This document shows, in pieces, positions 2,800 to 40,995 of a DNA stretch of 64,000 nucleotides. The stretch is from Microthyrium microscopicum. Its lineage: Eukaryota. Below the pieces are notes generated by a model. It was not told the origin of the DNA, ran no database searches, and saw only the letters and a list, made by a program, of their open reading frames with translations. Within the stretch, counting starts at the first letter, position 1; each line of letters starts with the position of its first letter. The position numbers and the translations under genes were made by a program. Location: the NCBI GenBank assembly GCA_010405405.1, contig MU004236.1, positions 2,052,070 to 2,116,069 on the forward strand, written 5' to 3'.

Positions 2800-5700
2800 A
2801 TACTTTTTACTTCTAATCTACTACTAATTTACTATATTTAATAAATCTTCCTTTTCTAGTGCTATTAACTCTATTAATAAATCTATACTAAACCTTATAA
2901 ATGACGTAATGAAGATAATTTATAGAATAAACTCTAAGTATAATTAGGGAGATTGTAAGTAGGCTAAGTAAATAGTTAAAGCTAAGAATAATGTAACTAA
3001 GGCGGACTTTTGTATGGAATTAGGCTATTATACTAATAAAATAGTCCTTAATATTATCTTTGTTGTAAAAAAGGATATTTTTAACTAATTTGGCGTAATT
3101 AAATGGCCTACTAATACTATTAGCTGTAATCTTAAATATATTAAAGTTATTAAACGCGATTTACAATTCTCCTAAGCTATTATTTTATTAGTATTTAATA
3201 TTTTCTCTTATGAAGCCCTAGACTAGATTATACTTTTGTACGCGCGATATCTTATTAGTAACAAATAAGCTTATTAAAAACGATATAAGTAACAAAAGCA
3301 GCCCTATAATCTACACGATCGTTTTGCTTTAAAGCTAGATATAATCCTAATTATTCTATAAATAACCTAAGCGTTTATGATATTTAACGATAAAGACACG
3401 TATAGTAATTCTGCTTTTAAAGAATATTAGCTGTACTATTCCTAGCTCTCTAACTAGCTTTACGGGACTATAAATAGACTATAAAGAAATTATACTTACT
3501 ATCTAAACCTCGTTAATAGCGTATTATTAAACGTGCTATAACTATAAAGCGATAGCCTAAGTTTAGCTATGTCTTATCCTTTATTTAACTAATATAAATA
3601 CTAAGGTTATATAATGCTATTACTAGGCTTTTAGAATAGTAATATCTATTATTAACTATAATAGTAGCTTAGCTATTATGGAATATAACTTTCGCTATCT
3701 ATGTAGCGTAACCTAACTTAATATGACTCTATAATATTTAGATTTAGAGATATAATTCTATTTTAGCTAAGTTCTAATAGCTATAGCCTATATTAAACTT
3801 TATAGTAATTTAATACTAGTAGGAATATAGTGTTAAGCTATGCTAATAAAGATAATAATAACTTCTTCTAAGGTACTTTAAGAGGTTATTGTAGTAATAC
3901 GCTATAGTATAACTAATTTTACGTATATACCTCTAGTAATAGCTATATGCTACCTAGATTTATCTAATTATTTCTTTTAGCTCTACTAGACCCTTCCTAA
4001 TCTTATGTATATATTTCTAATAATAGCTATATACTACTTAGATTTACTTAGCTACCTCTTTTAGCTTTGCTAGACCTTCTTACGCGTATATAATTAAAAA
4101 AGAAAAAGCCTACTTTAAAGAAATATTATAAAACCTAATAGTCCTTATCTATCTTTTAGGAAACTAATGCTTAAGATAGTAAAGACCTTAATATGATTAT
4201 ACTAGTATTTATTAAGAACTTTTTATAAAAATAGGTTATACTAAACCTAAAAGATATATATAAACTAGGCCTTTTTAACTTATCTAAAATAAATATAAAT
4301 ATTTATAAACGTGTAGTTAAGATTAGTATAAGGCACTTTAAAAGTATAATAAGCCTAAAGTTAGACTTATCTAAAAGTCTAGATATAATTTATAGTATAG
4401 GTTAAGTATAAAATAATTAAACTATTTTAATAAGTTTAAATATACGTAATTTTACTAAAGTTGCCTATAATAATCTTTATAGGCTAAGAAAGATTGCTTT
4501 TAAAGTTACCTAGGTTAAATCTTTCTTAAAAAAAACTTATATTAATAAATGAAAGCGTAAAGCCTTAGTTGCTTCTGCTCTAAGCCCTTTTCCTTTATCC
4601 TAAAATAGATATAATAAAAAACCTTATATTTAACCTTATATAGATCCTTAGCTAACTACTTAACCTACCTTTATTACTAAACTATTAATACGTAAATATA
4701 ATATGTATAAAGATTCTATTCCTAACTAATTTAATAAAGATAGCGAGATTACTAAAGATAATAAAGATAGTAAGGTTATTAAAGATAATAAAGATAATAA
4801 GGTTACTAAAAATAATAAAGATAGCTTAGATAAGGATTCTAAAGATAGCTTAGTTAAAGATTCTAAAATAAATTTAAATAGTAATTTAGATAATTCTAAA
4901 GAAGAAGACTTAGAATTTCTGCTAGCACTACTTAGTAGAATAAAGCAGAAGTACTATAATGATAAGGATAATATAAGAAGAGTTAATAGTAGCTATAATC
5001 TTTTAGTATCTATGAACGAAAAGAAATTTAAGAACGAATCTAGCTCTCGCAATTATAAAGAATAATAGACTTTAGCATAAATAAGCCTATTTGGTAGGAA
5101 AAATAGAGGCAAGTCTAAACGTAAGGAGATAAAGATGAAATTAGCTCTAATCTTAGAAGCGATTAATAAGAATAGTAGCTAGGAATATTATACTTTTCTA
5201 AGCTTACTAGTCTAAATATCGTAGCCCTAGAATGCTACTACTAATACAGAAATAGAGGGCGTACAATAAGATTAAGCATTACTTCTAAATAGTACTAGAC
5301 CTATAAATACTACTACTATATCTTCTTAAAGACTTAAAAAGCGCGTTATTAAGCTAAAGATAGAGAGCGTACAATAAGATTAAGCACCACTTCTAGACAG
5401 CGCTAGACTTATAAATACTACTACTATATCTTCTTAAGGACTTAAAGAGCGCGTCGTTAAGCTAAAGATAAGAGACGTATAATAAGATTAAGTACCGCTT
5501 CTAGATAGCGCTAGACCTATAGATACTACTACTACATCTTCTTAAGGACTTAAAGAGCCTATTATTAAGCTAGAGATAGAGGGCGTATAATAAGATTAAG
5601 TATCGCTTCTAGATAGTGCTAAACTTATAAATACTACTACTATATTTTCTTAAGAACTTAAAAAGTGCGTTATTAAGCTAGAGATAGGAGGCATATAATA

Positions 5701-8700
5701 AGATTAAGCACTGCTTTTAGATAGCGCTAGACCTATAGATACTACTACTATATTTTTTTAAAGACTTAAAGAGTGTATTATTAAGCTAGAGATAGAGGGT
5801 ATATAATAAGATTAAGTACTACTTCTAGATAGTACTAGACCTATAGATACTACTATTATATTTTCTTAAAGACTTAAAGAGCGTATTGTTAAGCTAAAAA
5901 TAGAGAGCGTATAATAAGATTAAGTACTGCTTCTAGATAGTAATAAACTTACGCGGCTTTAAAGCCTTAAGCTTCCTACTAGTAATATATAGATAGGAGA
6001 TAGTGAAGTATAAGTACTAATTTCTATAGATATTAATTATTTATCTAAAATGTGTTATTTATAAAGACCTAATTCTACTACTCTAGATTATATTATATTA
6101 TCTTTTACTCTATAAAAATTAAGTTATCTAATAATAGCTAAACCCTTTCTTAATTATTTAAGAAAATACTATAGCTCTCTAAATACGCTAGCTTCTCTAA
6201 CTATGCTATTTTCTTAAAATAAGCTATCTTCTTCTAACTATACTAAATCTTTAAGTTTCTCTAAGCGTGTTATTAATTTTACTAGCGCTAAGAATGTTAT
6301 TAATCTTACTATTAATAACTTAGAATTATTACTATTTATAGTAAACATTCTTATAAATGCTAAAGACTTAATTAAGAAAGATATTGCTATGCTAAATAAC
6401 TTTATAGCTATTAAAGTAATTAATTTAATTATAGAAAAGGTTACTATGCTATTTAAACTTTAGTTATTAAACTTATTATCTTCTTTATAGAATAAAGTAA
6501 ATATGTTACGTAGTATAGAAGTAAAATACCTTTAGAAGTTATAACTTTATAAAGATAAGTAATAGTATAACTATAATAATAAGGATAGTGATGTAAGAAT
6601 TAATATATAGTAAGCTTATAAGAAATAGATTAAATCTTATTTATTTAATATATATAAACTAATACCTAATACTATTAGCTTTTATATACTAAAGACTTCT
6701 AAAAATAAATATATCTAAGAATAAACTAGTTTCCTTATTAACTACTTTAACTATACTAAATATAGATCTATTATACTTAAGTCTTCTATAATAGGTAAAG
6801 CTCTATATACTAAAGCTTTATAAGCTAAACTATTTTGTAATATATATATAGAACGTAGAGAGTCTAGAATAGTTAAAGATAAGGATTTAAAAGCTTCTTT
6901 TATTATAAGCTTTTACGTAGAACTACTATAAAATAAAACTTATAAGTACTTAATACTTAAAGACTAGAGAGAGATATATGTATTTTTTAACTATAAAGAT
7001 AAGAGTAATATATTAGACTTTATTATTCTTAGATTTAAAGTTAATATTTAAATTTATTAAGCTATTAGAGTAATGATTATATATAAGTATATTATCCTTA
7101 CGTAAAGTTTCTATATTATAAACGTTCTAAGCTTAGGAAAGACTATCTAGATGCTAATTACTATTTAGATAAATAGTTAATAAACTAAAAGCGTAGTAAT
7201 GTATATAAAGAAGTAGCGCCTTATAAGAGAAGAGAAACTTAAGCTTCTTAAGGAATATTTATTAGATATTTAGGTTCCTAATTATTAAGGCCCTAAGGAT
7301 AAAGAGAAAGGTTCTTATATGTAATTAAGGAGTCTTAACTAACTCGTAATATACTATTACTCTAAGAAATTACTAATATAGTTAAAATCTACTATAACCT
7401 ATATTAACTTAGATAACTACTAGTATAGTACTCTTACTATTAGTATAAACTATATATAAATAATTATATTTATAATCTTAGTTTGGTTAAATAAATAGAA
7501 AAAGATAATTAATACCTTAAAATATAAAAGTAAGCCTAACTAGGTATTTACCTTCTATGTTAACTATTTAAGCATAAAACCTAAGTTTATATTCTTAAAT
7601 AAAGTCTCCTATACGTGTAGACTTTTTACTAATTTTAAAACTAATTTTAGAATACCTAAGTAAACTAGTATTATTGTATTAATAATATTAAGTTTATATA
7701 TGTCTTAGGTCTTATAACTAATTATAAGACTCTTATAAATGTAGTTAAAAGAATAAAAAATTAGATATTATAAAACTCTAGAACCTAAGAACTACCTTTA
7801 TACTAATATAGAATTAATAGTAAATAGAGATAAATGTCTATGTGATTAAAGATACTTTATAGTTAGAGTCTTAGTTTTAAATAAGTCTTATAAATATTAA
7901 ATACTAAATAACCTAACTTATTCTAATATTAATAAAGAAACCTATATACTTAGTTATATATTATTAGAATACTATCGTAGTATATAGTCTAGAGCTACTA
8001 TATTAGATTAATCTAGGATATATTATAATACTATAGTAAGCTAACTAAACCTAATTACTTACTTAGTAAATATATAATATATTTACTTTTCTAATACTAA
8101 TAAAGATATTAGGGTTTTTCTTAAAGATAAATTAAAGAAAGATTAGGTAATCTTTACTAATAACTATGTATTATTTACTTCTCTATTACTTAACGCTATT
8201 TTTAGTTAGATTGTTATACTTATTATAAAAGATATAAGATTATGTAAATATCCTAATGAAAGAAAAGAGAAATAGCTTATAAGAGAATAAGCTTAAGTAA
8301 GTGCTACTTTAGCTAGTATATATACCTTATTTAAACTTCGCTATATAATAGATATAGAACTTTTTAGTTAAAAGTGTATTATACTACCTCTAAATAAAAT
8401 AGAGTTTATTATTATTAATATAATAGACTTAGAAGCAATATAGCTTATAGATAAGCTTAATAAATATATAGTAGCGTAAATAAACAAACTAAAGATAAGT
8501 ACTATTAATGACTCTACTACTTAGCGTAAAAGTAAACTATATTAAGCTAAATAAATATAAGCTAGGCTAGCTAACTATATAGTCTACTAAACCTCTACTA
8601 AGATTATATATTATAAATTTATTATTAAGGTGCCTTATCTATTAATATTAAAATAGGTAAAGGAAATTAAAAGATAAGCTAAAGACAATCTCTATTATGT

Positions 8701-9950
8701 GCTAGTAAGAATTAATAGTAGCCTACCTTTAAAGCCTAATTCTAAGAAACTAGCTAAGCCTAAGGATAATCTCTTTGTTAAAGAAGCTCTTTAGTTTCTA
8801 AAGATAAGTGCTTAAATATAGTACATAGTAAATATTATTAAAAAGGTCTATACTAACCTAGAAATATACTTTTTTAATAGAGAGTAAAAGAAATAAAGCT
8901 TATAATAGGGTAAGGTTTTAATTATTATAAAATATCCTACTTTTATTAGTGCAATTATAGTAGCGCTTTAATATATAATTAAGAAATTTAATCTCTAAGT
9001 ACCTTATTTTAGTAAAACTAGTATATTAAGTAAAAAGTTATTTCTAATTAAAGTAGGCTATTTAAAAATTAGCTCATCCTTATATAATAAAGCTAATATT
9101 TATTACTTCTTCTAAAATATTCTAAAGTCTACTACGAGTAGTTAAACGCTATTAAGAGTAAGTGAATATCTCTTTAATAAGAACATCTAGGTTTTAATTA
9201 GAATGTATAATAGCTATAATATTAGAAGTAATTAGTAGTAGGTAAAGTATTTAATTATAATATTTATTCTAATATTGCTAAGTAATTAGACTTAAAGTAC
9301 TAGAAGAGTTTTTTAAGTAAGTAATATAGTAAAGTATATCTTAATTAATGTATTATACTTAGATGATAATTTAATTAATATATTATTATAGAATATTAAT
9401 AAGCTTTAGTTAAATATTATAGGTTTTATAAAGGCTTATTCTAAAGATTAAGTAGTATAACTAATAGAATTTAAAAATTTATAAATATATCTTAAATTAG
9501 GACTAACCTAGCCTAAGTTAACTAAACTAGTATTCTAACCTAAGAAAGCCTTAGCTTCTTTATCTATAAAAGAGATATAAAAATACCTAAAGAATATTAA
9601 AAATAATATATATTAGAATATTAAAGAGAGTTTAGTTATAATTAAGATAGAGCCTAGAGATAACGAATTTAATAAATAACTTTATATATAATTAGTTTAG
9701 TTTATAATAAGGGTTAAAGTATTACTATTAAATTATTAATAATATAGGATATTAGAAAATATACTTAAAGTTAATATTATTACTATTAATACGCAAAATA
9801 CGCTTTTATAGTAAATTTAAATATCTTAACTAAACTAATAGATATATCTAGTAACTAAAAGAATCTAGAGAGAGATAAAAGAATAATAAGGATAGATAAT
9901 AATGCCTTATAGCCTATAGAGTATCTATTTAGCTAAATATTTTCTAGCGT
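2800..9950 (+). pseudogene. RIP-inactivated giant ORF encoding a SNF2/SWI2-family (SF2) helicase with a low-complexity/repeat N-terminal region
   Basis: All motifs lie in one frame (position mod 3 = 2). 7106-7165 reads SFYIINVLSLGKTI*MLITI, de-RIPing to GF.I.DVPGLGKTIQML (motif I). 7577-7610 reads KPKFIFLNKVS, de-RIPing to FIFLDE (motif II). 9182-9325 reads NI*VLIRMY...IRSN***V...*STRRVF*VS, de-RIPing to IQVLIG....G.N.Q.......Q..GRVFRVG (HELICc motifs V/VI). The acidic tract at 4742-4920 and the 108-bp repeats share this frame. Ends are approximate. Confidence 0.75.
5249..5950 (+). repeat. 108-bp tandem repeat, ~6.5 copies (36-codon unit)
   Basis: The unit GAGATAGAGGGCGTACAATAAGATTAAGC...CTTCTAGA..GCGCTAGACCTATAGATACTACTAC... 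recurs at a 108-bp period (anchors at 5281, 5389, 5497 and onward). Copies differ almost only by transitions. Confidence 0.95.
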
Positions 9951-12900
9951 ATATTTATAAGATATAACCTAGCTATATTTATTTATAAACGCTATTCTGT
10001 TTATATTTTTCCTTCCTAGTAATATTAACTTATAAAGTAAATAATGTAGCACTATTAGTTTTTATAGCTCCTACTAAAATCTTAGGTAAAGAGCTTAGAA
10101 AGAATTATAGAGCTATATTATTTATACTGTTAAGTAATTAATAATCTAAGCTAACGTTTTAATAAGGTATTTCGTTAATCTTCCTCCTATTTATTTATAA
10201 TATTAGAACTTCCCTAAAAACGAAAATTAGTAATTTAGTCTTTTAACTTTAGCTTTTCTATAAGTAAATCTATTATCTCTACTAGTAGAAAATTAATAAA
10301 TTATGCTATATTATAATACTAACGTTATTAATATACTTAAATAAACTAGAAAAGATTTAGCTACGTAATTACCTTTTTTGCTAGAATTAATTCTATTATC
10401 TACTTTATTTATATCTAAAGGCTAAGGAAAAGGTAATAAAGAGGGGAGAGACGGAAAAAGATAGGGATAAGGAACTAAAAGTTAAGAAAGCTTAAACTTA
10501 AAGTATTGAGTTCTATTTAATTAGATAGGAAAAGCTATGTCTTTTTATAACCTTAATAATAAACTACTAGTCTAAGTAACTTTATTGCCTAAATTTAGAA
10601 CTTATTTATAATGACTATTACTAGTTTTAATCCCTAGCTTGCTTATTTAACTCTATCTTTATGCCTAATATCTTTATCTATCTTAGTATTATATTTACTA
10701 CTAATAACTATAAATATTATATTATTTCTTATACTAAGATAATCTATAAACTTAGTTAAGCTTCTATAAACTTAATAAGCTTATATAAATATATAAACTT
10801 TAAGAAACCTAATATAGTATTTAGATTTAAATAGTATTTAATCCTAATATATTAATTATAATTGTGCTTCTCTATAATTAGCTTTATTTAGATATGTATT
10901 TTAATATATACCTATTCTAATTATAGCAACTTATCCTTCCTATGTCTCTTATTAGGATTTGCTTAGGTGGGTACTATTATGCTTTAATTAGACCTACTTA
11001 AAGCACTTTAGGCTAATTTTTAAGGAGTCTAAGAAAAAGTAAAGTAATACTTAAGATACAAATAAAATTAAGAGTAAAAACTATAATCCTCTAGAATAAT
11101 TAAGTATAGACTAATTATTCTATAAATATAAAGCTATAACTGTGTGATTACCTACTCTACTAGGAGTAAGCTTGCTATATCTTGTATCTCTACTTAAAGG
11201 CTAAGAATGTAAAGAAATTAGAAAACGTAAAGAAGGTAAAGAAGTATGTAAAGAAGGCTATAAAGAAGGCTGTAAAGAAGGCTTAGTTAGAGGAGAAGGC
11301 TAAGGTAGAAGAAGTTACTAACTTATTAGAAAAGACTATACTTAAAAATAAGGTTAAGGTAGTAGCTAAAGAGGCTAAGAAGGCTTAGAGTTTAAGATAT
11401 AAGATACTCTTTGCTAAGTAGAAATTAAAAGTTATTATATAGAACCTATAGTTGCTATATTAAAGTTAATTAATAATATTAGCTTTAAAAGCTTAAATAA
11501 TTTTCTTTATTTATACTTTCTTACTTTAAAGGTTCTAGTCTCTATATTAGGGAGCTCTCTAATATAACCTTAAACGTTCTAAATATACTTATCTATAAGA
11601 GATATATAATAAATGATAAGACAAGTTATGAGAAAGGTAATAATTAGAAGTAGTAATTAAGGAAAATAGAATCTTAAGTTATAGGTATATTTAATAGGAG
11701 GGATTACTCTACTATTCTTAAAATCTAAGAATCTAATTAATTATTAAAAAAGTTATATAAGGTTCTAAACTTAAAATTACTACTAAGCTTTAAGGCTTCT
11801 TATTCTCTTTTTTGCTATTTATTTTTTTTTATTTGTAGTAATTATACCTTTATATTAAATGTATATTAGTTAGTATAAAGGTTAAGATATTATTCTTAAG
11901 GAGGGAAGAGTAGAGTCTACTAAGATAAGATAAGCCTTAGCTATAAAACTATTTATTATATTAATACTATTACTACTACCTTCTTTATCTATACTTTAAA
12001 GTAGTGAATAAGAAGAAAGAGGAGAAGGAAAAGATTATAAGTGAGAAAAATAAAGAATAAGAGGAGAAGAGAAAAGAGAAAAAGAAATAAGTGGAATAGA
12101 AGGTAAAAGAAGAAGAGATATAGTAAGTAAAGATAGAGGATAATTAGACTATTATAATTAGCTATAAAACTAAGCTAATATAATAATTTAGAGGTAATAG
12201 AAGTCTAAATTATTACTATTAATTATATTTAGGCTAGAAATTAAAATAGAAGAGGTTAGTACTTTAAGTAGAGAACTAAATAGCAATTATTACTATTTAG
12301 TTCTATTAGTATACTTTATAGATTAATTAGCGTAACCTAGTCTATATTATGAAATATTATTATTTGTTAAAAATAGAAGAGCCTTTAATTCCTACTAAGA
12401 AAGTATAATATTAACTAGAGTTGTTAAATCTAAAATATTTAAGTATATTATGTTTTTCTTTTATATTATTCCTATTTATCTCTAAGTAGATATACTTCTT
12501 ATTTACCTTAGTAGGAATAACTTAGAAAATATTAAAGACTATACGTACTTAAGTACTTATCTCTAGTACCTTATAAATAAAGTACCTAATAGAATTACGT
12601 TCGTAAGAGGCTATAGGGTTTATAATAGATTATATAATATAGAATTTAGAACGTAACGTAGCATCTTAGGTAATACGCTAAGGCTTTTAACTACTATAGT
12701 AGAGAAAAGACGTAATCTTATTATAAATCTACTTTATATAAAATAGCTATTAGACTTCTATTTTATTTATACTACTTCTTATTATTTAATTAATGCTAAT
12801 TATAGGTAAATTAGCTATGTTAAAGCTTATAATAATACTTACTTAAGATAAACTTATTATATAGTAATAATTACGTATAGGTAGCTATAGATAGTTCTTA

Positions 12901-15735
12901 AGCTTTATAGCGTACTCTTAATTTACTTACCTTGCTTTTAAATAAGAACAGAATAATAATAATGATTACTAACCCCTTTATTAATTCGTTAGAGTTACTA
13001 GACCTAAAGCTATTATTATAGATTTACTCTTAGAAGTAGAAGATTATAACTAGAGGCTTTATTACTATAATATATCTTTTAGTACTAATATTCCTTAACT
13101 TAATAAGGATAAGGATAGTAATCCTATAAGTAAAACTATATAGCTATTAATAATTTTAAATATAGAGAGCTAATAATAAATAAGCTAGAACGTCTAAACT
13201 ATTACTTATGTAACTTTCTTCGTCCTAATAAGTATAGTCTATTCTATAAATATATAATTTCTTAAATTATAAGACTAGTAAGTAAGTTATTACTAGAAAC
13301 CTTATGTTAATAATAGAAGCTTATAAGATATTAATATATAGAAGGCTAGTTACTAGAAAGGGCTAGGAATGATCTGCTATTTAGACCTCTATTATAATAA
13401 GGTATAGAATACCTTAACTATATCTAGAATAAATATTACTTCTTAGAATTTACACGCTAGACTTAGTTACTATCTAAGTATAGTAAATATACTAAATAAT
13501 AAGTTATAAAGCAAAACCGTAATAATGTAGAGGCTATAACCCTATAATATTAGAACGATTATAACTATTAGCTAACTTATTATACTAAAGGATAAAATCT
13601 ATAATACTATGTATTATAATATAAAGAATATAAAGGTAGCGGTTTTAAGCTATAAACGTATCTATAAAATAACTTTCTCTAAAAGTATATAGGTCTTAAA
13701 TAATAGTATATCTAGAAAAGTTTAGAAAGTCTAAATAAGTCTAGAAATTTCTAAAAATATCTTATATAATCTTAAAGAATATTTATTTTATTATACTATT
13801 AACGCTAAATACTACTACTTACTTTATATTTTATATATAAATATAACTTAACTATAGCTACTAACCTAGATATAAGTCTATAAGTCTTCTTCTAGCAGCG
13901 TAAAGATATCTATAGGCTTAATATATAGGCCCTTAGAACTAGCAAATCTAGTTATAAGTAGCACGTAGTCCTAAGTAATAATGCGTTTCTAACTATTTAA
14001 GTATTACTATAGTATATTTTCCTTATATTCTTTTTTCTATGTTATAATAAATTTATAACTCTTAATCTTTATAATATACTTATTATTAATCTTTAGTATA
14101 TTCTCCCTATTCTAACTCTAATCTTATATTATCCTTCCTACTTAATAACCTCTTTATATTATAGTTAGACTTTTAGAAGATAATATAGCTAAATAATAAA
14201 ATAGCTTAAAAGAGTATCTAAATATAACTAAGAAGAAGCTAATGCGATAACTTAATATAAACTTAAATGAATATACTTAATTAGCTATAGCTATAAAGAA
14301 GTAACTTTAAGACTTATACTATAGTCTTAATAACTATAATACGTATGAGGGAAAGTAAGAAATAATTACTAATATTATATAATACTTAAATATATAACTA
14401 CTAGCTAAATAAGGCTATTCGTATATTAGAAAATTACGTTAGCTAAGTATAAGGTATAATAAAGCTATATATAAGAATAAATAATAAAGATTGCTTTTTA
14501 CGTTAGTCTACTGTTACTAATGAAATATATGCTAATAAAAATAAATGAAAGCTTAAACTTAGAATATATGTAAGTAAACCCCTATTCTAACTTTAATTAT
14601 TTATTAATAATAGATAGGGTCTATTACTAATAAAACTCTACTAGTATCTTTCTAGAGCTTAAGGCTAAGAGAATTAAAATAATCCTAAGATTATAGTAAT
14701 ACGTAACTTAAGGTATAACTATATATACTTCTAGACTTTAACTCTTCTTTAGTAATTATAAATATATAAATATATATTTATAAGGTAGTAAGTAATTATA
14801 TTTATATTTTAAACTATAGAAAGTTTATAAATAGTAGCTATAATAGTTCTAGGAAAAATGCTAATACTCTAAATTATGATACTATAGTTAAGTTCCTTAG
14901 AGAGTTCTTTAAGTATAAGTAATATAAAAAGCTCTTACTTTTCTATAAATTTAATTAAATAAAGAGAACTCTTATTAATAGTAAGGTTTTATTTTATGGA
15001 GTAATTAATAGTACTATATTAATTAGGTGATAAACTACTAAATTTAAAGTAATAAAATAAATTAAGAGATAAAATATAATCTATTATTACGTAATTCTTA
15101 GACTATTATAGGTTCCTTCTTCTTCTTTAACCTAGGAAATATACTAATAATTAGAATAAAGCGTAATGTTAATTATTGTAAGTAAAATACTAAGGTATGC
15201 TAAAACGCCTAATTCTTAGGTTAAAACCTAGCTTTATAACCTTATAGTTAATAAAGTAAACGTTCTTTAAGTAAGATAAATTAGTATTAGATCTTAATAG
15301 CTTAGTAGGATAGGTTAGCCTTAGATATTAAATCTCTATACGTATTAGTCTAAACCCTAGCTTTAGTTTAGGTACTTTCTTACCCTCTAAGGCGCGTTAC
15401 TTATTTTGCTACTTTTATATAATAAACTAGTTACTTTCTTAATATGTCTATATATATCTATTAGGTTAATAGCGTTTAGAGTCTACTAGCTGTTTAGTAT
15501 AGATAATAGATAGTACTATAGGTTAATTAGGTATAGGTTTATTAAATACCTAAGGGTTAAGCTATATTTTAGTTTCTAATATAATAGTATCTATTCTAGC
15601 TTTAAAAAATACCTTAAGCTTAGTATTAAAAAGTAGCTCTATATTAGGCTTAATAGGAGTTTCTAATAAAACTTAAAAACTAGCCTCTATCTTAAGTTAA
15701 AGAAATAATTATAACTTAGTTTTAATAAAATACTC

Positions 15736-16094
15736 TAGAGCTTATTTAATAGAGTCCTTAAGCTTTATAATAAAAGTAGCCTATAACTCTAGGCTTAGAG
15801 CTTATTTAATAAGAGCCTTAAGCTTTATGATAAAAAGAGCTTATAACTCTAGGTCTAAAGCTTATTTAATAGGGGCCTTAAGCTTTATAAAAAAAGAAGC
15901 TTATAATTCTAGGTCTAGAGCTTATTTAATAGAGGCCTTAAGCTTTATGATAAATAAAGCTTATAACTTTAGTTTTAAAGGTTATTTAATAAGAGTTATG
16001 AAATAAGGTGCCTACTATAACTCTTAGTCTAGTAATTATTTAATAGGAGCCTTAAGCTTTATAATAGAAAAAGCTTATAATTCTAACTCTAGAG
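15736..16094. repeat. 60-bp tandem repeat, ~4.5 contiguous copies plus one offset copy (20-codon unit)
   Basis: CTTATTTAATAG.G.CCTTAAGCTTTAT.A.AAA..AGC.TATAACTCTAGG.CTAGAG recurs at 15741, 15801, 15861, 15921, partially at 15981, and again near 16036. Confidence 0.9.
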
Positions 16095-19000
16095 TAGTAT
16101 TTAGTAAGTTAGAGTTAATAACTATTAATAATTCTAATACTAAGAAAGTATCTTAATTAGACTTTTAGTATATATTAGCTAAGTCTAGTAGTCTTGTTTA
16201 ATAAAACTAGAAAGTATTACTTATTCTTTATATATTAATAGGATTTAATTAAGAAATAGTATTTTATAGTATTATAAATATTAGGTTCTATTTAATAGTA
16301 CTAACTAGCTAATAGGCTTATGCGTATAAAGGATTATCTATATATTATAGAATTATTAGAATACTATTTTTTAGTATCCTTTTATATACCTTATAGTAAG
16401 TTTTTATAAAATTAATATAACTTATTAGAGTATAGCTAGTCTATATATAGTTAACGCATTTATTACTATATTTATAGAAGAGTAGATAGTTATATAATAT
16501 ATAGATTAAGTAATTATCTATAGAAGGTTAGAATAGTGCCTATAATTAGTACTATAATAGTTAACTAATATTTTACTAGGTTTAATATATGGAATTAAAA
16601 TTAAACTATTATATAATAATAGAAGGGTTTAAACTTATTAGATAAGCGTAGATTATAAGTATAGTAATGCTTAGTATCTAACTATTGTTTATTAATATAT
16701 ATAAAGATAGTAACTAATATAGTACTTTAGGACTTATAGACTTTATAAGTTTAGACTCTATGTTAGCTTAATTAGTAATAAAGGTAGCTTCTATAGCTTA
16801 CTTACGATTAAGAGAGATAAACTAATTGCTATAGAATAACGTGATAGTAATTATTAATAGACTAGTTACCTAAATAAAGTAATTAAGAGGTTTAATACTA
16901 GCTTCTTTATTAAAAGTATTTCTTTATATAAACTAGATAAGCTTGCTCTAGCTAATAAAGATTAGTAGCTAAATATATTTACGTATTTTTAGGATAATTT
17001 AGTAAATAATTAACTTGTCTTATATAGGAGGAGTAATAGTAGTAGCTAGTATTTTGCTTATTATAGTAATATAGTAGTAATAAAAGAGGATATAAACTTT
17101 TAGTAGCTTAATAGAGTAGTAATTAAGATATTCTTATAGGAAATAGCGTAAGTTTAATACTAACTTTTATTTAACTATTTAGATTTAGCTTATCTTACTA
17201 TTACTAATTATAAACTATAAATCTCTTACCTACCTTATATAATACTTAAGCTTGTTTATACGTTTAATAATATATTAGCGTAATGGCTAAACGCAATTTT
17301 ATAATATAGATTAATATAGCTAAACGCGACTTTATAATATAAATTAATACTTAACCTTTGCTTTAATATAAGGAGATATAGAAATAGCTTAGTATAAGCT
17401 TATAATCTTAGGCCTTTTTTATATAGTCTAAGAATTAGTATATATAATAATTAGCGCATTAGATGATAATTAAATATAATAATAGGCTAAATCTAATTTT
17501 ATAATATAGGATTACTACTTAGCTTTTGCTTTAATATAGCGTAGTATAGAAATTACTTAGTATGACTTAATAATCTCTAGCCCCTTTTACGTAGCCTTAG
17601 AATTAATAAATCTAATGATAATAGAAAGTAATAGCTAAATAGGATCTTATGATCTACCTTAGTTTAACCTCTTATATTAATATAGTGTAATGTAGAAATA
17701 GCTTAACGCGACTTATCTCTTCTTACTTTTTTTATATAGTCCTTAGAATAGCCTATTTAATGAGAACTAATAATAATAGCTAAACGAGTTTTAAGAATAT
17801 AACCTTTATATATACTTAGCGTATACTACGTTAGTTAAGAGTTGAAAAGTAATAGGAAATACTACTAGGATTAGTCCTAGTACTAATATCTTTTATATGT
17901 TATATAATATAACTTTTAAAATATTATCTTCTTTTCTTATTATTCTATGCAATCTACTTCTTATTCTCTACTATACTTATTTAAAGTTCTACTAATTATA
18001 TATTTCTATTAGAATATCTATATACCTAGTAATCTTTATTATAATATTATACTTATTAGATTCTTATTATTACTTTATTTTAATATTTGAATCTTAATAA
18101 TACGTTTTATATATAATATAACTTCTTAGGTAAGCCTATACTAAGTTAATAAAACTATAATAAATTTAGTAAGATAAAGTAATATTATAAAAAGTAAGAC
18201 GAGAAGTAGGCTTATAAGAGCTCGTAAAAATTAAGGTATAAAGAGAGGTAAGGCTAAGTAAACTACTACGTATATTTTCCTAGCCTATAATTTACTTTTA
18301 TTAGATTCTAATTTATATATTCTTCTTTACTAAGAATAGTAGACCTTTATTATAAGACTCTATAGCTTAAGACTTTTTAAGCTATAATAAATAAAATAGA
18401 ATAGACTTTATAAAGTAGACGTCTAATATTAATATAATATACTCTAAATATACTTACTAAACTAAATATTAGCTAATGTAATAATTGCCTGCTAGCTAGA
18501 CGAATGGATAGAGTTTTTAAACCTAACTAAGTAGATATAAGTTAAAGGTACTACTATTAAGCGAAATGGTGCTTATGAATCTAGAGGCACTAATAAACTC
18601 TAAGCCCTAAACTCTAAGTTAGGCTTACTTGACTATCTAAAAACTAGCTTAATAATTTCTAAAAGAATGATTCTTATTAAATGTTAACTAAGTCGTAATT
18701 CCTATATAGTATTAAATGCTACTTCTAATGAAGCTCTAGAAGCTACTTAGGATATGGGATCTATAAGTACCTTAGATGAGTCTTTTAGTAGCAGCTAAGT
18801 ATTTCTACTATTTATTTATTTAGATTTATTTAGAAAGCTAATAAATACTAATAGATATATAAGTCTTAGACTATTCTAAAAACCTCTTCTCTTTACCTTA
18901 CTAGTTATAGTAATGTAATTACTTAGAAAAGCTTAATAAGTAATATAATATTATATAATATATTAATATCTATCTCTTTTATTCTGTTTTATCTCTACCT

Positions 19001-21182
19001 TATTATATATATAAGCTAATATAATAGTATTAAAGTAGATTCTTCTAACTATGGCTCTTCTTAAGCTATAAGTAATAAAGACGCTACGTTGGGTTATTTC
19101 TATTTATAGAAACTAAGATAAGCGTAAATATATAACTTACTACCTTTTAATATAGACTAAATGTCTGTTCTTAGCTTAGGTAATTATCTTCTTAGTAATT
19201 GCCTTATATATAGTATAAATGTAAATAGGCTCTCTTTATAATTTATGTAATCTAGTCTACTAGTTTCTATACCTTAGTAGCTATATATAGCCTTTAAATA
19301 ACTATTTCTCTCTAAGCTTATTATTATAATACTAATAACCTTATTAATAGATCTAGTCTATTATAAGGTTTACGTTTACCTATAAGAAAAAGTAAATAAG
19401 AATCTGTACTAAGCTAAGGTCTATATAACGATAGAGTTATTAGGTTAATTATGAATAAACTAACCTTAGCTACTCTTAATAGTAAGTATAACTTAGATCT
19501 CTAACTAAATTATTAAAATGATACTAGTAAGTAAAGTATAATAGGTAATAAGCTTTAGAACTATTACTATAAGATATATCTAGAAAAGGCGCTACCTAAG
19601 TTCCTAACTATAATAATTAATATCCTAAAGATACTAACTATATCTAAGTATAACTAATTCTATAGGAATATAAGTTTATTCTTATGTCTTCTTAAATATA
19701 GTATATGTAAGATTTAGCTAACTTTAAAAACTACCTAAATATAGCACTACGTTAGTTAGTATAGAATTACTATATCTAAATAGTTAAAGGTATTATTATT
19801 AAATATCTAGACTAAATAAAATATATATTAATTAGTACTATTTAACTCTATGTTCCTAAGATTACTTAAGACTAAGAAACTAGATATATAAAAGTTTACT
19901 AAGTAGCTAAGAAAAGATAGTAACTTTACTAAATTATATAAGCATAGTAAAAATAGAGAGAGTAAACCTTACGTAAGTTTATATTTTTAAATAAGACTAA
20001 ATTATAACTATATATTAATAATACCTTTAGGAATATATATTATTTATTAATAAGATAATCTTCTTTCTTATTAACGACTTACTATTTTATTTGCGTGCTA
20101 GTTATAAGCATAAAACCTTTATACTTAGCTAGGGTAGGAAATATTTTAGAGACTACTAAGCTATAAAGACTATAGAATTACTATTTTTAGGTAAACTTAT
20201 TATATATATCTATATACTCGTTAAGCTATATATAGAGACTATTATCTAGAGAGTTAATAATTTTTAGCATAACTTACCTACGTGTTAAAGTAATTTAGGT
20301 TATTAAATAAATAATATAATACTAACTAGTAACTATAATAAGTTATTAAAAATAGCTTAAATAATAGAACTTATAACTACCTTGTTTAAAACAAAAAATG
20401 AGCTTACTTATTTAAAAAATCGTTAGAGATCTTATATTATATAAAACTAGGGTATAATATAAAGAGTAATAGGAGCTAATACTAGACGTGTATACTTCTA
20501 ACTATAATAATATTAATAAGCTTTATAAAGTACGTTCTTTAAAAAACTAGTAATAATCTTACTAATATTGCTATTTAGGCGAAACCTTAGCCTATATAGG
20601 AAGATAATTATAATCTACCTACTTAAGAAGATAATAAGAACTAGGACTCCTTTAAGCTACTATAATATTTAGGACGTAAGTAAAGTAGTTCTAAAGCTAG
20701 GTTTAATAAGCAATATAGATATAAAGGACATACTCTACGGCCTAAGAAAGTAATGTTATATAGTAAGTTCTTAGCTAACGATAGGTATAAAGTAGATAAT
20801 AAGTAGAATAATCCTAATTATATAGACCTAATAGGTAAGTCTTATATATTTAAGTAAATATATAGGCTCTAATTACTAATAAATTATATAAATAAAACCT
20901 AGTAATAAAGACTAGCTAAAGAGAATATATATTTAGTTTACTAAACTAGAATAGATAGAAACTAAGCTATTAAACCTTAAAAGCTTTCTAACCCCTTAAG
21001 ATATTATAAATACTACTAATAACGAGAAAGATCTAAATTATACCCTATTATTCTATCTTATAAGTAAGGACTTAAGCTAAGAGAAGGAGGCATAGATTAT
21101 AGATAATAGTAAGAAGGGTATAATATTATAGAACTTAATCTTAATATACCTATAATAAAGTAGTCTATAAAGTTAAGATCTA

Positions 21183-21900
21183 NNNNNNNNNNNNNNNNNN
21201 NNNNNNNNNNNNNNNNNNNNNNNNNNNNNNNNNNNNNNNNNNNNNNNNNNNNNNNNNNNNNNNNNNNNNNNNNNNNNNNNNNNNNNNNNNNNNNNNNNNN
21301 NNNNNNNNNNNNNNNNNNNNNNNNNNNNNNNNNNNNNNNNNNNNNNNNNNNNNNNNNNNNNNNNNNNNNNNNNNNNNNNNNNNNNNNNNNNNNNNNNNNN
21401 NNNNNNNNNNNNNNNNNNNNNNNNNNNNNNNNNNNNNNNNNNNNNNNNNNNNNNNNNNNNNNNNNNNNNNNNNNNNNNNNNNNNNNNNNNNNNNNNNNNN
21501 NNNNNNNNNNNNNNNNNNNNNNNNNNNNNNNNNNNNNNNNNNNNNNNNNNNNNNNNNNNNNNNNNNNNNNNNNNNNNNNNNNNNNNNNNNNNNNNNNNNN
21601 NNNNNNNNNNNNNNNNNNNNNNNNNNNNNNNNNNNNNNNNNNNNNNNNNNNNNNNNNNNNNNNNNNNNNNNNNNNNNNNNNNNNNNNNNNNNNNNNNNNN
21701 NNNNNNNNNNNNNNNNNNNNNNNNNNNNNNNNNNNNNNNNNNNNNNNNNNNNNNNNNNNNNNNNNNNNNNNNNNNNNNNNNNNNNNNNNNNNNNNNNNNN
21801 NNNNNNNNNNNNNNNNNNNNNNNNNNNNNNNNNNNNNNNNNNNNNNNNNNNNNNNNNNNNNNNNNNNNNNNNNNNNNNNNNNNNNNNNNNNNNNNNNNNN
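21183..21900. other. Assembly gap (718 N)
   Basis: Run of N characters. Confidence 1.
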
Positions 21901-25014: not shown

Positions 25015-26256
25015 TCATCTACACAAAAGCTCCTCAACCATTTCCGCAATAGCCAACGAACTAGTCAAACCCGGCGACTCGATCCCCAACAAATTAACAA
25101 AACCCTCGAAACCCTCTTCCTTCCTTATTATAAAGTCCTTGAAATTCTGGCCAGCTATAATTGCACTCGTCCTTGTCAACTTTGGCCGAATGCCCGTATA
25201 ATCCAAAGTAATAGCACTCTTGTCAATGGTAGGCAAGTACCTTGATATATCGGCCAACGCAGCTTCCAAATGCTCATCGCTCGCCGCATAATCCGTCGGC
25301 GAGTCCACCCATTGTATATCAGGTCCAAACCGTATCCTCCCTCCCAGATCCAATGTCAAATGTGTGCCCAAACCACCATGACCAGGCACAGGAGCCGGAT
25401 AGATAAGTGTGCTCGTCTTCGGCCTAGATAACGTATACGAGTAATACGTGCCTTTGGCATAGTAAGGCGTAATATGTCTATCCTCCGGCAAAATCGAATT
25501 CGACAACGGCACCGCATACAGACCAGCAGAATTGACAATCGTGTCCGCAGTAATACATGACTCTTCTCCACCGTCCGCTCCAGTTGCTGAGCTCTTTGTC
25601 CATATCTCCCAGCCGCCTGAGCCATTCTGCTTCGGGACAACTCTCGTTATCGCACTATTCAGCGCAGTAACGCCTCCCCGTTCTTCAAAATCACCAAGTA
25701 AATACTGCATCAGTGCATGACTGTCCACAATGCCCGTCGTCGGACTCTCCAAAATGCCTGCTGTAGCTTGAACATCCGGCTCCCTCCTCTTTCCCTCCTC
25801 CTTGCTCAGAAAGTGCGTCGGCACACCCACCTGTTTCGAGAAATCCAGGATTTTCTCCAACTCTTTGAACTCCGTATCATTTTGCGCAACGACCCATTTC
25901 CCCGTGTTCCGGTGCGGTATGCCCTGCTCTTTACATAGTTTGTATAGTTCCTGGCGCCCGCGGATACATAGTTTTGTCTTGAGAGAGTCGGCGCCGTAGT
26001 AGAGTGCTGCGTGGATAACCTCGGAGTTGCGGCTGCTTGTTTCTGTGCCTACGGCGTCATGCTTCTCGATGAGGACTGTTGAGGCGCCAGTGCGGCCTTG
26101 GAGTTGGCGGGCGGCGGCGATGCCGACTACGCCGGCGCCGATTACGGCGTGGGCGAAATCTGATTTTTGAGATAGAGTTGTTGAGAAGAGGCGCTGGATG
26201 GGTTTTGTTGTGGGTTGGTGTTGAAGACGCCAGGCGTTGCGGGTGATGGACCCCAT
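25015..26256 (-). CDS. L2HGDH: L-2-hydroxyglutarate dehydrogenase, mitochondrial (FAD-dependent oxidoreductase, DAO family)
   Basis: Intronless 413-aa ORF with an Arg/Ser/Thr-rich presequence-like N-terminus, a GAGVVG Rossmann motif, ETSSRNSEVIHA, GLGTHLTLDLGGRIRFGPD and C-terminal GIESPGLTSSLAIAE. Confidence 0.93.
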   Translation of the reverse strand: MGSITRNAWRLQHQPTTKPIQRLFSTTLSQKSDFAHAVIGAGVVGIAAARQLQGRTGASTVLIEKHDAVGTETSSRNSEVIHAALYYGADSLKTKLCIRGRQELYKLCKEQGIPHRNTGKWVVAQNDTEFKELEKILDFSKQVGVPTHFLSKEEGKRREPDVQATAGILESPTTGIVDSHALMQYLLGDFEERGGVTALNSAITRVVPKQNGSGGWEIWTKSSATGADGGEESCITADTIVNSAGLYAVPLSNSILPEDRHITPYYAKGTYYSYTLSRPKTSTLIYPAPVPGHGGLGTHLTLDLGGRIRFGPDIQWVDSPTDYAASDEHLEAALADISRYLPTIDKSAITLDYTGIRPKLTRTSAIIAGQNFKDFIIRKEEGFEGFVNLLGIESPGLTSSLAIAEMVEELLCR

Positions 26257-27037: not shown

Positions 27038-28322
27038 ATGCGCAGCACTACCCTGCTAGCCGTTTGGCTGAGCCCAGTCGTGGTGACTGCTATGCCACAA
27101 GCTGATCCAAAAAGCGGTATGTCTTCCTGGGCCGCTTCATACTTTCCCAACGCTCGATCTGGTCACAATGCGTGGCTTGATCCGCAGAATGACAAGACAT
27201 GTAGTATGACGCTCGAACTGACAATCTCACAGGCTGTCCACCGCTAAAAAGCTCCACTCCATCCCTAATCAAGCCAGCAAATTGTCCAGATCCCAAGACA
27301 ATTCCCAACGCGAAAGGCACACTCAAAGACAATGAATGTCTCGTCGGCGGTATCATGGGCGTGTGTCACTCCACCGTCTCTGACAACTTACCGTCAACTA
27401 AAACATGAATAGGGCGACTTCTTCAACCCATGCTATGCGCCTGACTTGCGCAACGGCCTAGGACCAGGCTCAGGCGGCCGTTCAGTGTCGGACTGGTCTG
27501 GTGGCTCCGGCCCTCACAAAGCGCAATTCTTCACAGATCCCAGCCTGCCGAATCATACTATCTATGCACCGAAGACACCCGTTACAGGGAAGAAACTCCC
27601 ACTACTGGTCTGGGCGAACGGCGCGTGTGAGAGTGATGGCTCGGCGTTCTCAAATTTCCTTACGGAGATTGCGAGCCATGGATTTATTGTCCTGGCGAAT
27701 GGAAAGCCGTCAAAGGTCTGGGGAAAGGGTGGTTTCTCGATGCCAGGTGGTGAGAAGTCTAGGGCGGCACAGTTGACTAAGAGCATAGACTGGGCAGAGA
27801 AAGGAGGAGCTGCAAAATTTGGGGAAATCGATATGAGTAACGTCGCCGTCGCGGGACAGAGCTGTGGTGGTGTAGAAGCATATTCGGCGAGTGTATATGA
27901 GCCAAGAGTGAAGTTGATTGGCATATTCAACACCGGTGTTATTGATCCTGCCAGACGATGGATGCTGAAGGATATCAAGCAGCCAATTGGATACTTTTAT
28001 GGAGGCAAGGTGGACTTTTCGGAGAGCTTTGTATGTTACGTCTAAACGGATGTTATGTGGTACATTGCTAACTTTGTGGTAGATCACGCAAGATTTTAGA
28101 GAGATACCGGCGAGTCTCCCGGCTATGATGTCGTCTTTGCCAGTTGGGCATGGAGGGACATTTTCGGAGGCGAATGGTGGGAAGTTTGGGAAGGCTGCGG
28201 TTGCTTTCTTCAAGTGGAATCTTCAGGGAGATGCTGCGTCGAAGGATTTGTACTTTAACAAGACGTCTGCTTTGTATAAGGATGGTTGGACGATTGATAC
28301 GGCGCACTGGACACAGAAGTAA
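27038..28322 (+). CDS. Secreted alpha/beta-hydrolase (esterase; chlorophyllase/cutinase-like fold), 4 exons, ~354 aa
   Basis: Frame-consistent exons 27038-27116, 27233-27360, 27413-28030 and 28083-28322 with GT..AG introns and branch sites. Signal-peptide-like MRSTTLLAVWLSPVVVTA, FLTEIASHGFIVLA, nucleophile elbow GQSCGG, candidate catalytic His in VGHGGTF. Confidence 0.85.
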
Positions 28323-29175: not shown

Positions 29176-29209
29176 CACTAGCGGATATCAGGGGCATTTC
29201 AAATCGTCC
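29176..29209 (+). repeat. Left terminal inverted repeat (34 bp, starts CACTA)
   Basis: Direct reading; pairs with 40962-40995 with two transition mismatches. Confidence 0.95.
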
Positions 29210-40500: not shown

Positions 40501-40961
40501 GAATAAAGGATTAGATCTAGGATCTTAATCTAGGACGATTAGATAGGTAGTAGAATAAGATCTAGATAAGATTATATTATACTATATTAAAAGACTTAAA
40601 AGTAGCTAGCCTATAATAAATTATACTTACTCTATACTACGCTTTCTCTAATTACGAACCTAGGCTACCTTAAAATAAAGAAAAAATCCTATCTACTTTA
40701 GGAAGCTATAAATAAGTAAACGTCCTAGTATTAAGATATCCTAACTATAAGTCGTCCTATAGCCTTAAAATATTTTAATAGTATCTTATTTATTAATAAG
40801 ATAGCTTAACTTTAAGGCATTTTTATTTTATACTATTTATTATAAAGACGTATAAACCCTATAAATAATTTAAACGTACTATAATATCTACCATAAGGTA
40901 TTATAGGACGCTATTAATTTTGAATTAGTAGCTAGAAAAAACGCGTCATAGCACGGTCACA

Positions 40962-40995
40962 GGACGATTTAAAATGCCCCCGATATCCGCTAGTG
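40962..40995 (-). repeat. Right terminal inverted repeat (34 bp, ends TAGTG)
   Basis: GGACGATTTAAAATGCCCCCGATATCCGCTAGTG is the reverse complement of the left TIR with two mismatches. Confidence 0.95.

Follow-up and report, generated by a model that had tools for sequence, protein, structure and literature searches.

What did the DNA at positions 2800-9950 of this window (the whole stretch analysed, 64,000 nucleotides of Microthyrium microscopicum contig MU004236.1) encode before it was degraded by RIP, the fungal defence that mutates repeats? The first-pass annotation had read it as the remains of a giant SNF2-helicase gene, serving as cargo or core gene of a large fungal mobile element. We found that this reading holds in part, with RIP, multicopy status, a long open reading frame (ORF) and an SNF2-type motif-I block all observed, but with neither a complete helicase nor a multi-gene element recovered. 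The explanation that we favor, and consider rather probable, is a RIP-killed copy of a multicopy repeat whose ghost ORF of ~1,900 codons contains an SNF2-type ATP-binding block followed by a tail matching none of the profiles tried.

RIP state and copy number

The interval 2800-9950 is RIP-degraded, AT-rich fungal repeat DNA that codes for nothing today. Its TpA/ApT ratio of 1.62 and (CpA+TpG)/(ApC+GpT) ratio of 0.22 fall on the RIP side of the usual cut-offs (~0.89 and ~1.03, respectively), compared with 0.68-0.84 and 1.20-1.34 in GC islands. The AT block holding the interval extends past the start of the window, and a neighbouring AT block is a TIR-bounded transposon.

Contigs matching 2800-21100 at ≥80% identity numbered 3,326, 3,359, 3,357 and 559 in four runs of one sample, probably the same as that of the assembly, and the depth of these contigs is not equivalent to copy number. 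All 30 bins of 2800-21100 were covered by matching contigs. In run X1 the copies differed from the window by transitions at 2,727 places (C>T at 815, G>A at 972, T>C at 544 and A>G at 396) and by transversions at only 20, with the alternative letter at single variant places carried by 3-16 distinct contigs. The repeat is present in many diverged copies, ~80-90% alike, in the M. microscopicum genome. Thousands of short contigs, differing almost entirely by transitions, bear out the earlier proposal that the affected gene was multicopy, and the proposed RIP-type mutation is likewise confirmed by the RIP indices and by the divergence of both tandem units and genomic copies, which is almost wholly by transitions. 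Self-comparison of the window, plain and transition-merged, revealed no second copy of the ORF within it.

Frame and extent of the ghost ORF

A single long ghost ORF was observed on the + strand, without a frame-shifting interruption. Its frame is that of positions 2801 and 7133 and is kept from ~3,900 to ~9,600. The low-complexity tract and tandem arrays come first, followed by the motif-I block ~1,050-1,100 codons into the ORF (P-loop at ~57% of its length) and then the tail:

3902-9610 (ends approximate), + strand: ghost ORF of ~1,900 codons, delimited by stop density and RIP-aware codon likelihood
3913-4076, + strand: 84-bp tandem duplication, 2.0 copies, in frame, 81% matches
4732-4867 (about 4720-4900), + strand: K/N/D/S-rich low-complexity tract, periodicity 9, 18, 24 and 27 bp
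5252-5941, + strand: 108-bp (36-codon) tandem array, 6.4 copies, in frame, 86% matches
7031-7189, + strand: SNF2-type Q-motif and Walker-A (motif I) block, 31.8 bits, the sole significant family signal
7133-7147, + strand: intact LGKTI (TTA GGA AAG ACT ATC), within the motif-I block
7190-9610, + strand: ORF-like tail of ~800 codons, matching no motif of any profile tried

The ghost ORF frame contained 7.6 stops per 100 codons, almost exclusively TAA or TAG, against 12.7 and 16.9 in the remaining + frames. Under a Markov-1 null the minimum over six frames was 10.8±0.46 stops per 100 codons, and the lowest value among 300 simulations was 9.0. A context-free model expects 4.4, which the observed 7.6 exceeds, and this counts against the favored explanation. 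GC content at codon positions 1, 2 and 3 was 0.266, 0.234 and 0.191, respectively. The RIP-aware codon likelihood never missed the coding frame when tried on five real genes in 100 simulated-RIP runs. It placed the ghost ORF frame top in every 900-nt segment across 3,601-9,600, save that in 9,001-9,900 the antisense shadow frame was ahead by 1.3 nats; over 4,700-9,610 the ghost ORF frame leads that shadow frame by 36 nats. The signal was weak at 3,600-3,900 and absent at 2,800-3,600, and therefore the one-frame ORF that had been put at no fewer than ~1,500 and perhaps ~2,400 codons is retained at ~1,900, while the longer figure is unsupported.

Stop density and codon likelihood also agree with the claim that the frame runs on through the upstream tract and the 108-bp repeats, the latter being the array at 5252-5941. 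Once C/T and G/A were merged, the 84-bp duplication was 100% identical over 85 bases and the 108-bp units were 98.3-99.2% alike. Other genomic copies skip 324 bases (3 units) at the 108-bp array, and further copies skip 435 bases with 3 different letters between (net 4 units). The K/N/D/S-rich tract was possibly acidic (D/E-rich) before RIP, given that G-to-A change turns GAN into AAN.

An SNF2-type motif-I block

Codons were aligned to protein profiles by a RIP-aware method, with all profiles built from bacterial proteins and a broad SNF2 profile comprising 28 sequences. On this profile the motif-I block stood well clear of shuffled sequence (16.0±2.1 bits), and no shuffle in sets of 100 and 40 attained its score. 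A narrow SNF2 profile gave 25.3 bits, reached by 0 of 150 shuffles. The next-best SNF2 score in the RIPed DNA of the window, searched in six frames (76,348 codons), was 19.3 bits. Six other P-loop profiles were scored at 7031-7189 (AAA, 17.5 bits; two ResIII, 15.4 and 10.0; RecQ, 13.0; DEAD, 11.9; Pif1, 11.6), and the SNF2 profile was ~14 bits above the best of them.

LGKTI is indeed intact where it had been reported. With AGC as the codon before it and TAG as the codon after it, the full G-LGKTI-Q requires two RIP-type reversions. The Q motif (Y-Q..G), its spacing and D..GLGKT.Q are mutually consistent within the block.

Chance could also produce such a block, in which case the ORF would be the relic of an unrelated repeat protein, e.g. 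a retrotransposon polyprotein or a transposase, either too decayed or too distant from the profiles to be recognised. This explanation, the strongest of the alternatives although unlikely, draws on the fact that a single block of 53 columns matches and that reversion yields one more D..GLGKT.Q among the 74,346 codons of the window outside the ORF. The true chance level must also be above the shuffle estimate, because the window was originally chosen for motif I. A long ghost ORF within an AT-rich block mutated by RIP is in most cases a transposon gene, and an AT block neighbouring this one is a transposon with TIRs. Against chance, the score lies ~8-9 sd over the shuffles (Gumbel extrapolation, ~4e-6 to 4e-5 per ORF), the block falls within the ORF's own sense frame, a share of <3% of the codon-frames scanned, and the Q motif, spacing and Walker A agree with one another. 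Profiles for reverse transcriptase (RVT_1, from group II introns) and for the integrase core (rve, bacterial) found no match in the ORF frame, both being distant and hence weak probes for fungal elements. The identification of the block as SNF2-type, far above chance and specific among the seven P-loop profiles, is supported.

Remaining SNF2 motifs and the C-lobe

Two further motifs had been proposed as recoverable by RIP-type reversion, and we located their candidates downstream of motif I:

7586-7612, + strand: FIFLNKVSY, motif II candidate, at chance level
9293-9322, + strand: xSTRRVFxVS, motif VI candidate, at chance level

The proposed motif II (FLDE) reads FLNK within FIFLNK (7586-7603). 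With RIP reversion allowed, chance predicts 1.7 occurrences of hhhhDE in an ORF this long against two seen, and the motif II scan was no better in this frame than in others, leaving this claim at chance frequency. The proposed motif V/VI (Q..GRVFRVG) fared no better, with xSTRRVFxVS matching the generic QxxGRxxRxG only after several reversions; that pattern was expected 2.6 times under reversion and seen 3 times, and the shorter QxxGRxxR was expected 9.7 times and seen 7 times. Motifs "recovered" via RIP reversion are mostly chance, with QxxGRxxR matching roughly every 200 codons in this DNA. The motif VI candidate site reached 13.6 bits in the chain alignment and 4.5 bits in an ungapped scan for SNF2 motif VI.

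Block scans did not raise the ORF frame above the other frames for motifs Ia, II (DExH), III (LTGTP), IV or VI; scores for Ia, II and III were 10.8, 5.5 and 6.7 bits, vs up to 15.1, 7.6 and 9.3 elsewhere. The best placement of motif V (11.1 bits vs ≤7.3) was out of register and overlapped the motif VI candidate site. Across all frames of the RIPed DNA in the window, every segment of the SNF2 C-lobe stayed at noise, and the canonical C-lobe is absent from the ghost ORF. A chain of collinear segments scored 50.1 on the broad profile against a null of 43.2±5.5 (13 of 100 shuffles reached this score), 55.5 on the narrow profile against 42.0±4.4 (above all 150 shuffles), and 40.2 on the broad profile with a 10-bit jump penalty against 26.7±4.4 (0 of 100). 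Each of the last two excesses roughly equals what the motif-I block contributes by itself.

Searches with the read-through translation were similarly empty. Pfam, at E up to 10, returned neither PF00176 nor PF00271 but only POX (E 0.77), at low power on RIPed sequence, and phmmer against the PDB returned one designed repeat protein (E 8.3). The region 6698-9607 had 0 matches by phmmer among 1.84 billion representative proteins, and a homologue search with residues 1405-1470 gave 2 candidates, neither of which was scored.

These results bear on a rival reading, which we regard as distinctly unlikely, in which RIP acted on a copy of a whole, canonical helicase gene of the SNF2/Rad5 type and the ORF would have its counterpart in the X3X3R8 repeat of Stagonospora (Parastagonospora) nodorum (Hane & Oliver 2010). 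Such a gene would account for the SNF2 specificity of the motif-I block and for a frame that stays open 800 codons beyond it, and the ~730 codons from motif I to the motif VI candidate would presumably suit a Rad5/Rad16-like insertion. There is also a precedent in the SNF2-like helicases of RIP-affected repeats (PMC3017866). However, motifs Ia-VI are not above non-coding frames, the database searches are blank, and the C-lobe appears in no RIPed frame, whereas in Escherichia coli RapA it holds 44-55 bits even at 90% RIP. RapA, the sole held-out positive control and one for SNF2 alone, also gave 27-41 bits for motifs I+Ia and 13-17 bits for motif II over 58-90% simulated RIP; an SNF2 protein borne by a fungal element could be more aberrant than RapA. 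The SNF2 profile itself is close to the family consensus, since its bacterial source proteins score 243-273 bits (30 loci) and 147-240 bits (20 regions) on Pfam SNF2-rel_dom, which again argues against a canonical gene having been overlooked. The SNF2 helicase described as spanning >2.2 kb therefore contracts to the motif-I block, with Ia, II, III and the C-lobe at noise.

Other helicase families and element structure

A relic of one of the helicases that commonly accompany fungal repeats, either a RecQ helicase linked to telomeres or the Rep/Pif1 protein of a Helitron, is very improbable. Such proteins come from long ORFs without introns, and their helicase occupies the C-terminal half; the ORF length, P-loop position, internal tandem repeats and multicopy status seen here resemble these families, and the motif VI candidate reads as the generic QxxGRxxRxG and not as its SNF2 version. 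Neither profile, however, puts the Walker A at 7133 above noise, and the x-Q after GKT matches the SNF2 form. On the ghost ORF the RecQ profile (bacterial) reached 13.9 bits locally (z -1.2; chain z -1.6), and the Pif1 profile, from 8 bacterial sequences, 16.1 bits (z -0.1). DEAD-box, two ResIII and AAA profiles had no significant match in the ORF.

The window was also examined for the large multi-gene element that the first-pass annotation had envisaged. Plain and transition-merged self-comparison yielded no direct or inverted repeat pair bracketing 2800-9950, in a setting where the AT block leaves the window, and neither a second ghost gene tied to the ORF nor a transposase was found in the window. 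A second ghost ORF-like stretch at 32401-38400 matched 0 Pfam families. With no termini, partner gene or transposase observed, the idea of a multi-gene element with a cargo or core gene is not upheld.

Interpretation

Under the RIP-killed repeat explanation, the product of the ORF before RIP would most likely have been a large protein that bound NTP and whose kinship with SNF2 ATPases was confined to the surroundings of the nucleotide-binding site. This protein may have been a very divergent SNF2-like one, or it may have acquired an SNF2 N-terminal segment. RIP killed the gene, leaving it as a non-coding part of an AT-rich, RIP-mutated block. The ancestry of the motif-I block, any ATPase activity in the past and spread of the copies through transposition are inferences. 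Because the rest of the SNF2 motor was not found, the locus is to be taken as a dead repeat of the ordinary sort, uncertain as to family, and for the present it adds one to the dead repeats of AT-rich blocks mutated by RIP.

An undescribed ascomycete element family, with an intronless ORF of ~1,900 codons encoding a divergent SNF2-like NTPase with an acidic tract and 36-residue repeats and lacking a recognisable transposase, is an unlikely but consequential possibility. A real SNF2-like motor without a transposase would point to a repeat or mobile element of a type new to fungi, in which a chromatin-motor gene spreads as a repeat, and thus self-amplifying or amplified fungal DNA of a new kind. 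The analysis also serves as a worked example of how codon-level, RIP-aware profile alignment, combined with shuffles and a simulated-RIP control, separates real from chance signals.

Comparison with known systems

The likeness to Starships lies only in the earlier idea of a large cargo-carrying element; a captain (DUF3435), termini and cargo structure were not seen in the window by repeat searches alone. Helitron Rep/Hel proteins share a single long ORF, a P-loop in the second half and multicopy status, but differ in that the Pif1 profile is negative here. The telomere-linked RecQ repeats (S. nodorum X26; Leptosphaeria maculans, as covered in part of PMC3105345) share a long helicase-type ORF within a RIPed repeat, but the RecQ profile is negative here and the ghost ORF has a Walker A of the SNF2 kind. 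With the SNF2 family (PF00176 and PF00271) the ghost ORF shares the Q motif, D..GLGKT.Q and their correct spacing at the score of the motif-I block, and differs in that motifs Ia, II, III and IV-VI were not found and the read-through translation had no Pfam match to the family.

The first-pass annotation had left SNF2 out of the helicases usually linked to fungal repeats, a view contradicted by the X3X3R8 family of S. nodorum, which carries tandem Rad5-like helicases, a Rad6-like ubiquitin-conjugating enzyme and unknown ORFs (PMC3017866). No other SNF2-bearing fungal repeat was found in the literature covered, including parts of PMC10799480 and PMC3105345. Compared by description, X3X3R8 comprises several genes with clear BLAST matches after deRIP (PMC3017866), in contrast to the one ORF here, where the motif-I block alone matches and partner genes were not seen. 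What the two have in common is a RIP-affected multicopy repeat with SNF2/Rad5-like sequence that becomes visible solely through RIP-aware analysis (PMC3017866).

Composition and RIP signature

AT-rich blocks alternate in the window with gene islands of normal GC content (~0.45-0.53). Over 2800-9950 the TpA/ApT index was 1.62 and the (CpA+TpG)/(ApC+GpT) index 0.22, compared with 0.68-0.84 and 1.20-1.34 in the gene islands, and by the usual cut-offs these values are a RIP signature.

Features of the AT-rich DNA
1-24,000, 29,200-41,000 and 61,500-64,000: AT-rich blocks, GC ~0.20-0.26
1717-1795 and 2292-2370: inverted repeat pair of 80 bases, ~500 apart, 91% alike with transitions merged
3902-9610 (+): ghost ORF, both ends approximate
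3913-4076: 84-bp duplication, 100% identical after merging C/T and G/A
5252-5941: 108-bp tandem array, 6.4 copies, 86% matches; units 98.3-99.2% identical after the same merging
7031-7189 (+): motif-I block (Q motif and Walker-A)
15734-16094: 60-bp tandem array, 6.1 copies, 72% matches; units 88-96% alike with transitions merged
21183-21900: assembly gap (N run), within the first AT-rich block

Merging transitions restored near-identity of the 108-bp and 84-bp copies, so almost all of their divergence consists of transitions. The RIP proposed for this region by the first-pass annotation was thus supported by the dinucleotide indices and by transition-type divergence among both tandem units and genomic copies.

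A ghost ORF of about 1,900 codons

Within 3,902-9,610, the frame of 2801/7133 carried 7.6 stops per 100 codons vs 12.7 and 16.9 in the other plus frames, while a first-order Markov null gave a six-frame minimum of 10.8±0.46, with 0 of 300 simulations below 9.0. One antisense frame was equally stop-poor, so the strand is not given by stops alone. A RIP-aware codon likelihood (the window's own codon usage decayed by C-to-T and G-to-A), which, tried on five real genes after simulated RIP, chose the correct sense frame in 100 of 100 runs, ranked the plus frame first in all 900-nt windows of 3,601-9,600 except 9,001-9,900, where the antisense frame was ahead by 1.3 nats; over 4,700-9,610 the plus frame led by 36 nats. 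Every TRF period within 3,900-5,950 was a multiple of three, the 108-bp repeats keeping the frame as had been claimed, and GC decreased from the first to the third codon position. From stop density, codon likelihood, repeat periods and codon-position GC, the ghost ORF is real and runs ~1,900 codons without frame-shifting interruptions. The long frame read in the first-pass annotation therefore held, but not its extension to 2,800, as codon likelihood gave no ORF signal at 2,800-3,600 and a weak one at 3,600-3,900. The observed stops exceeded the 4.4 per 100 predicted by a context-free model; putative causes of the excess are the preference of RIP for CpA and the Gln-rich repeats. On the minus strand, frame -2 also showed strong evidence of a ghost ORF at 1-1500, with a margin of 19-23 nats per 900 nt, continuing past the window's start.

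An SNF2-type motif-I block

With stops as X, the ghost-ORF translation returned nothing relevant from Pfam or PDB sequences and no match among 1.84 billion representative proteins, and the motif-I region gave no scored match in a word-indexed search. These direct searches have little power after RIP, and we therefore used a RIP-aware codon-to-profile HMM alignment, whose emissions score how likely each ancestral residue is to yield the observed codon through C-to-T and G-to-A decay. All profiles were built from bacterial proteins gathered with Pfam or NCBIfam models: SNF2 (28 sequences, 484 columns), AAA (16 sequences), Pif1 (8), group II intron RT (11), integrase core or rve (19), and further RecQ, DEAD-box and two ResIII profiles.

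The SNF2 profile gave one local match, which scored 31.8 bits and spanned the Q motif and motif I (7031-7189) in the frame first proposed. This score was reached by 0 of 100 codon shuffles (16.0±2.1, maximum 22.3) and 0 of 40 in a second set (15.9±1.7); the five other frames scored 14.7-18.6 bits, and the runner-up among 76,348 codons of the window's RIPed DNA, six frames, scored 19.3. Other profiles scored low at the block (AAA 17.5, ResIII 15.4 and 10.0, RecQ 13.0, DEAD 11.9, Pif1 11.6 bits). Among the profiles in this panel, then, the block is both significant and specific to SNF2. The leading alternative, that it is a chance match within an unrelated repeat gene, is unlikely; shuffles and runner-up speak against it, the match of a single block for it.

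Pattern fits under free RIP reversion, with expectation for ORF-sized sequence
D..GLGKT.Q: expected 0.03, seen 1; one match in 74,346 outside codons
hhhDExH: expected 0.32, seen 1, at 7871
hhhhDE: expected 1.7, seen 2
QxxGRxxRxG: expected 2.6, seen 3
QxxGRxxR: expected 9.7, seen 7; outside the ORF frame, 360 further matches

Because the hhhhDE and QxxGRxxR(xG) patterns were seen about as often as expected, the motif II (FLDE, 7586-7612) and motif V/VI (Q..GRVFRVG, 9293-9322) recovered earlier by reversion are not evidence. As read, the latter has a generic SF2 form, not the SNF2 form.

The remainder of the SNF2 core

Joining collinear SNF2 segments across free gaps gave a chain score of 50.1 bits vs 43.2±5.5 for shuffles, 13 of 100 reaching it. 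A stiffer jump penalty gave 40.2 vs 26.7±4.4 (0 of 100), the excess being equal to the motif-I block alone, and a narrower SNF2 profile gave 55.5 vs 42.0±4.4 (above 150 of 150), with an excess of about the block's size. Ungapped SNF2 scans for motifs Ia, II, III, IV and VI in the ORF frame were no better than in non-coding frames; motif V reached 11.1 bits vs at most 7.3, out of register and overlapping the motif VI candidate. The one positive control, for the SNF2 profile, was E. coli RapA, which was excluded from that profile and is a remote family member (Pfam SNF2 score 71.5 bits). At 58%-90% simulated RIP it retained 27-41 bits over I+Ia, 13-17 over II and 44-55 over the C-lobe. Any canonical SNF2 core ought thus to have been detected, and the SNF2 profile found none in the ORF frame or any other frame of the window's RIPed DNA. 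Of the single-frame SNF2 helicase originally described, the motif-I block stands and the rest of the core, at noise in these scans, does not. A canonical SNF2/Rad5-like gene would account for the block but is improbable, with its core missing in every frame though RapA keeps it at 90%. A RecQ or Helitron helicase is very improbable. RecQ, DEAD-box, both ResIII, Pif1 and AAA profiles gave local z of -1.2 to 1.4 in the ORF, weak negatives from bacterial profiles (Pif1 from eight sequences).

Copy number and element structure

Self-comparison, plain and transition-merged, found no second ghost-ORF copy within the window. Contigs were examined from four DNA runs of one sample in one study, probably the assembly's own sample; 3,326, 3,359, 3,357 and 559 of them matched 2,800-21,100 at ≥80% identity. 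In one run, 722 contigs matched at 99%+, 825 at 95-99%, 1,227 at 90-95% and 552 below 90%, and the differing places comprised C>T 815, G>A 972, T>C 544, A>G 396 and 20 transversions. Alternative letters at single places were carried by 3-16 different contigs. The 108-bp array was shorter in some copies, by 324 bases (3 units) or by 435 bases with 3 others between (4 units). Contig counts, transition-dominated differences and array-length variants together show that the genome carries the entire 18-kb stretch, and not the ORF alone, in multiple copies diverged in the manner of RIP, as one unit or several families, in agreement with the multicopy gene proposed.

The proposed large multi-gene element was unsupported rather than refuted. 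The window contained no terminal repeats bracketing the ghost ORF, though the AT block extends past its start, and no linked second ghost gene or transposase was found there; RT and integrase profiles gave nothing in the ORF frame, weak results from distant bacterial probes.

Separately, the second AT-rich block (29176-40995) ends in 34-bp terminal inverted repeats starting CACTAG (32/34 bases match, both mismatches transitions), with CCC on either flank; such ends occur nowhere else in the window. It looks like an 11.8-kb CACTA/EnSpm-like DNA transposon with a heavily RIPed interior. Inside it, minus-strand rve matches at 31538 and 31920 (21.3 and 22.4 bits, RIP-aware, bacterial profile) were weak and collinear, in different frames and barely over the 18-19 bit noise. 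Codon likelihood favoured frame +1 over 30600-40000. The read-through translation of 32401-38400 had no Pfam match and was rich in L, I, S and Y, so that the opposite strand may be the coding one. Ordinary genes in the GC islands included ORFs at 25018-26256 (-), 27446-28042 (+) and 46744-47436 (+). One of these is an FAD-dependent oxidoreductase (DAO, E 5.6e-62). Two, lying on opposite sides of the CACTA-like element, matched different parts of the PAF-acetylhydrolase-like hydrolase profile, at positions 96-132 and 262-349.

Comparison with known RIP-affected repeats

The ghost ORF at this locus is real, exists in multiple copies and was killed by RIP; it carries a genuine-looking nucleotide-binding block of SNF2 type, as judged from sequence, without a recoverable SNF2 core. 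We lean, by a modest degree, towards a repeat-family protein that was SNF2-like but divergent or partial.

SNF2 had been placed outside the helicases tied to fungal repeats. In available excerpts, a co-option screen (PMC10799480) classes SNF2_N as a non-transposon domain, and the L. maculans genome paper (PMC3105345) has as its sole 'helicase' mention a RecQ telomere-linked helicase among repeats. The sections of Hane & Oliver 2010 (PMC3017866) on X3X3R8, a RIP-affected cluster present in nine copies in Stagonospora nodorum, run against that placement: after deRIP, the cluster was recognised to contain tandem Rad5/SNF2-like helicases together with unknown ORFs and a Rad6-like enzyme. On this account SNF2-type sequence within RIPed fungal repeats is of a kind already known, and X3X3R8 and, through its motif-I block, the repeat described here are alike in holding such sequence in a RIP-affected multicopy fungal repeat.
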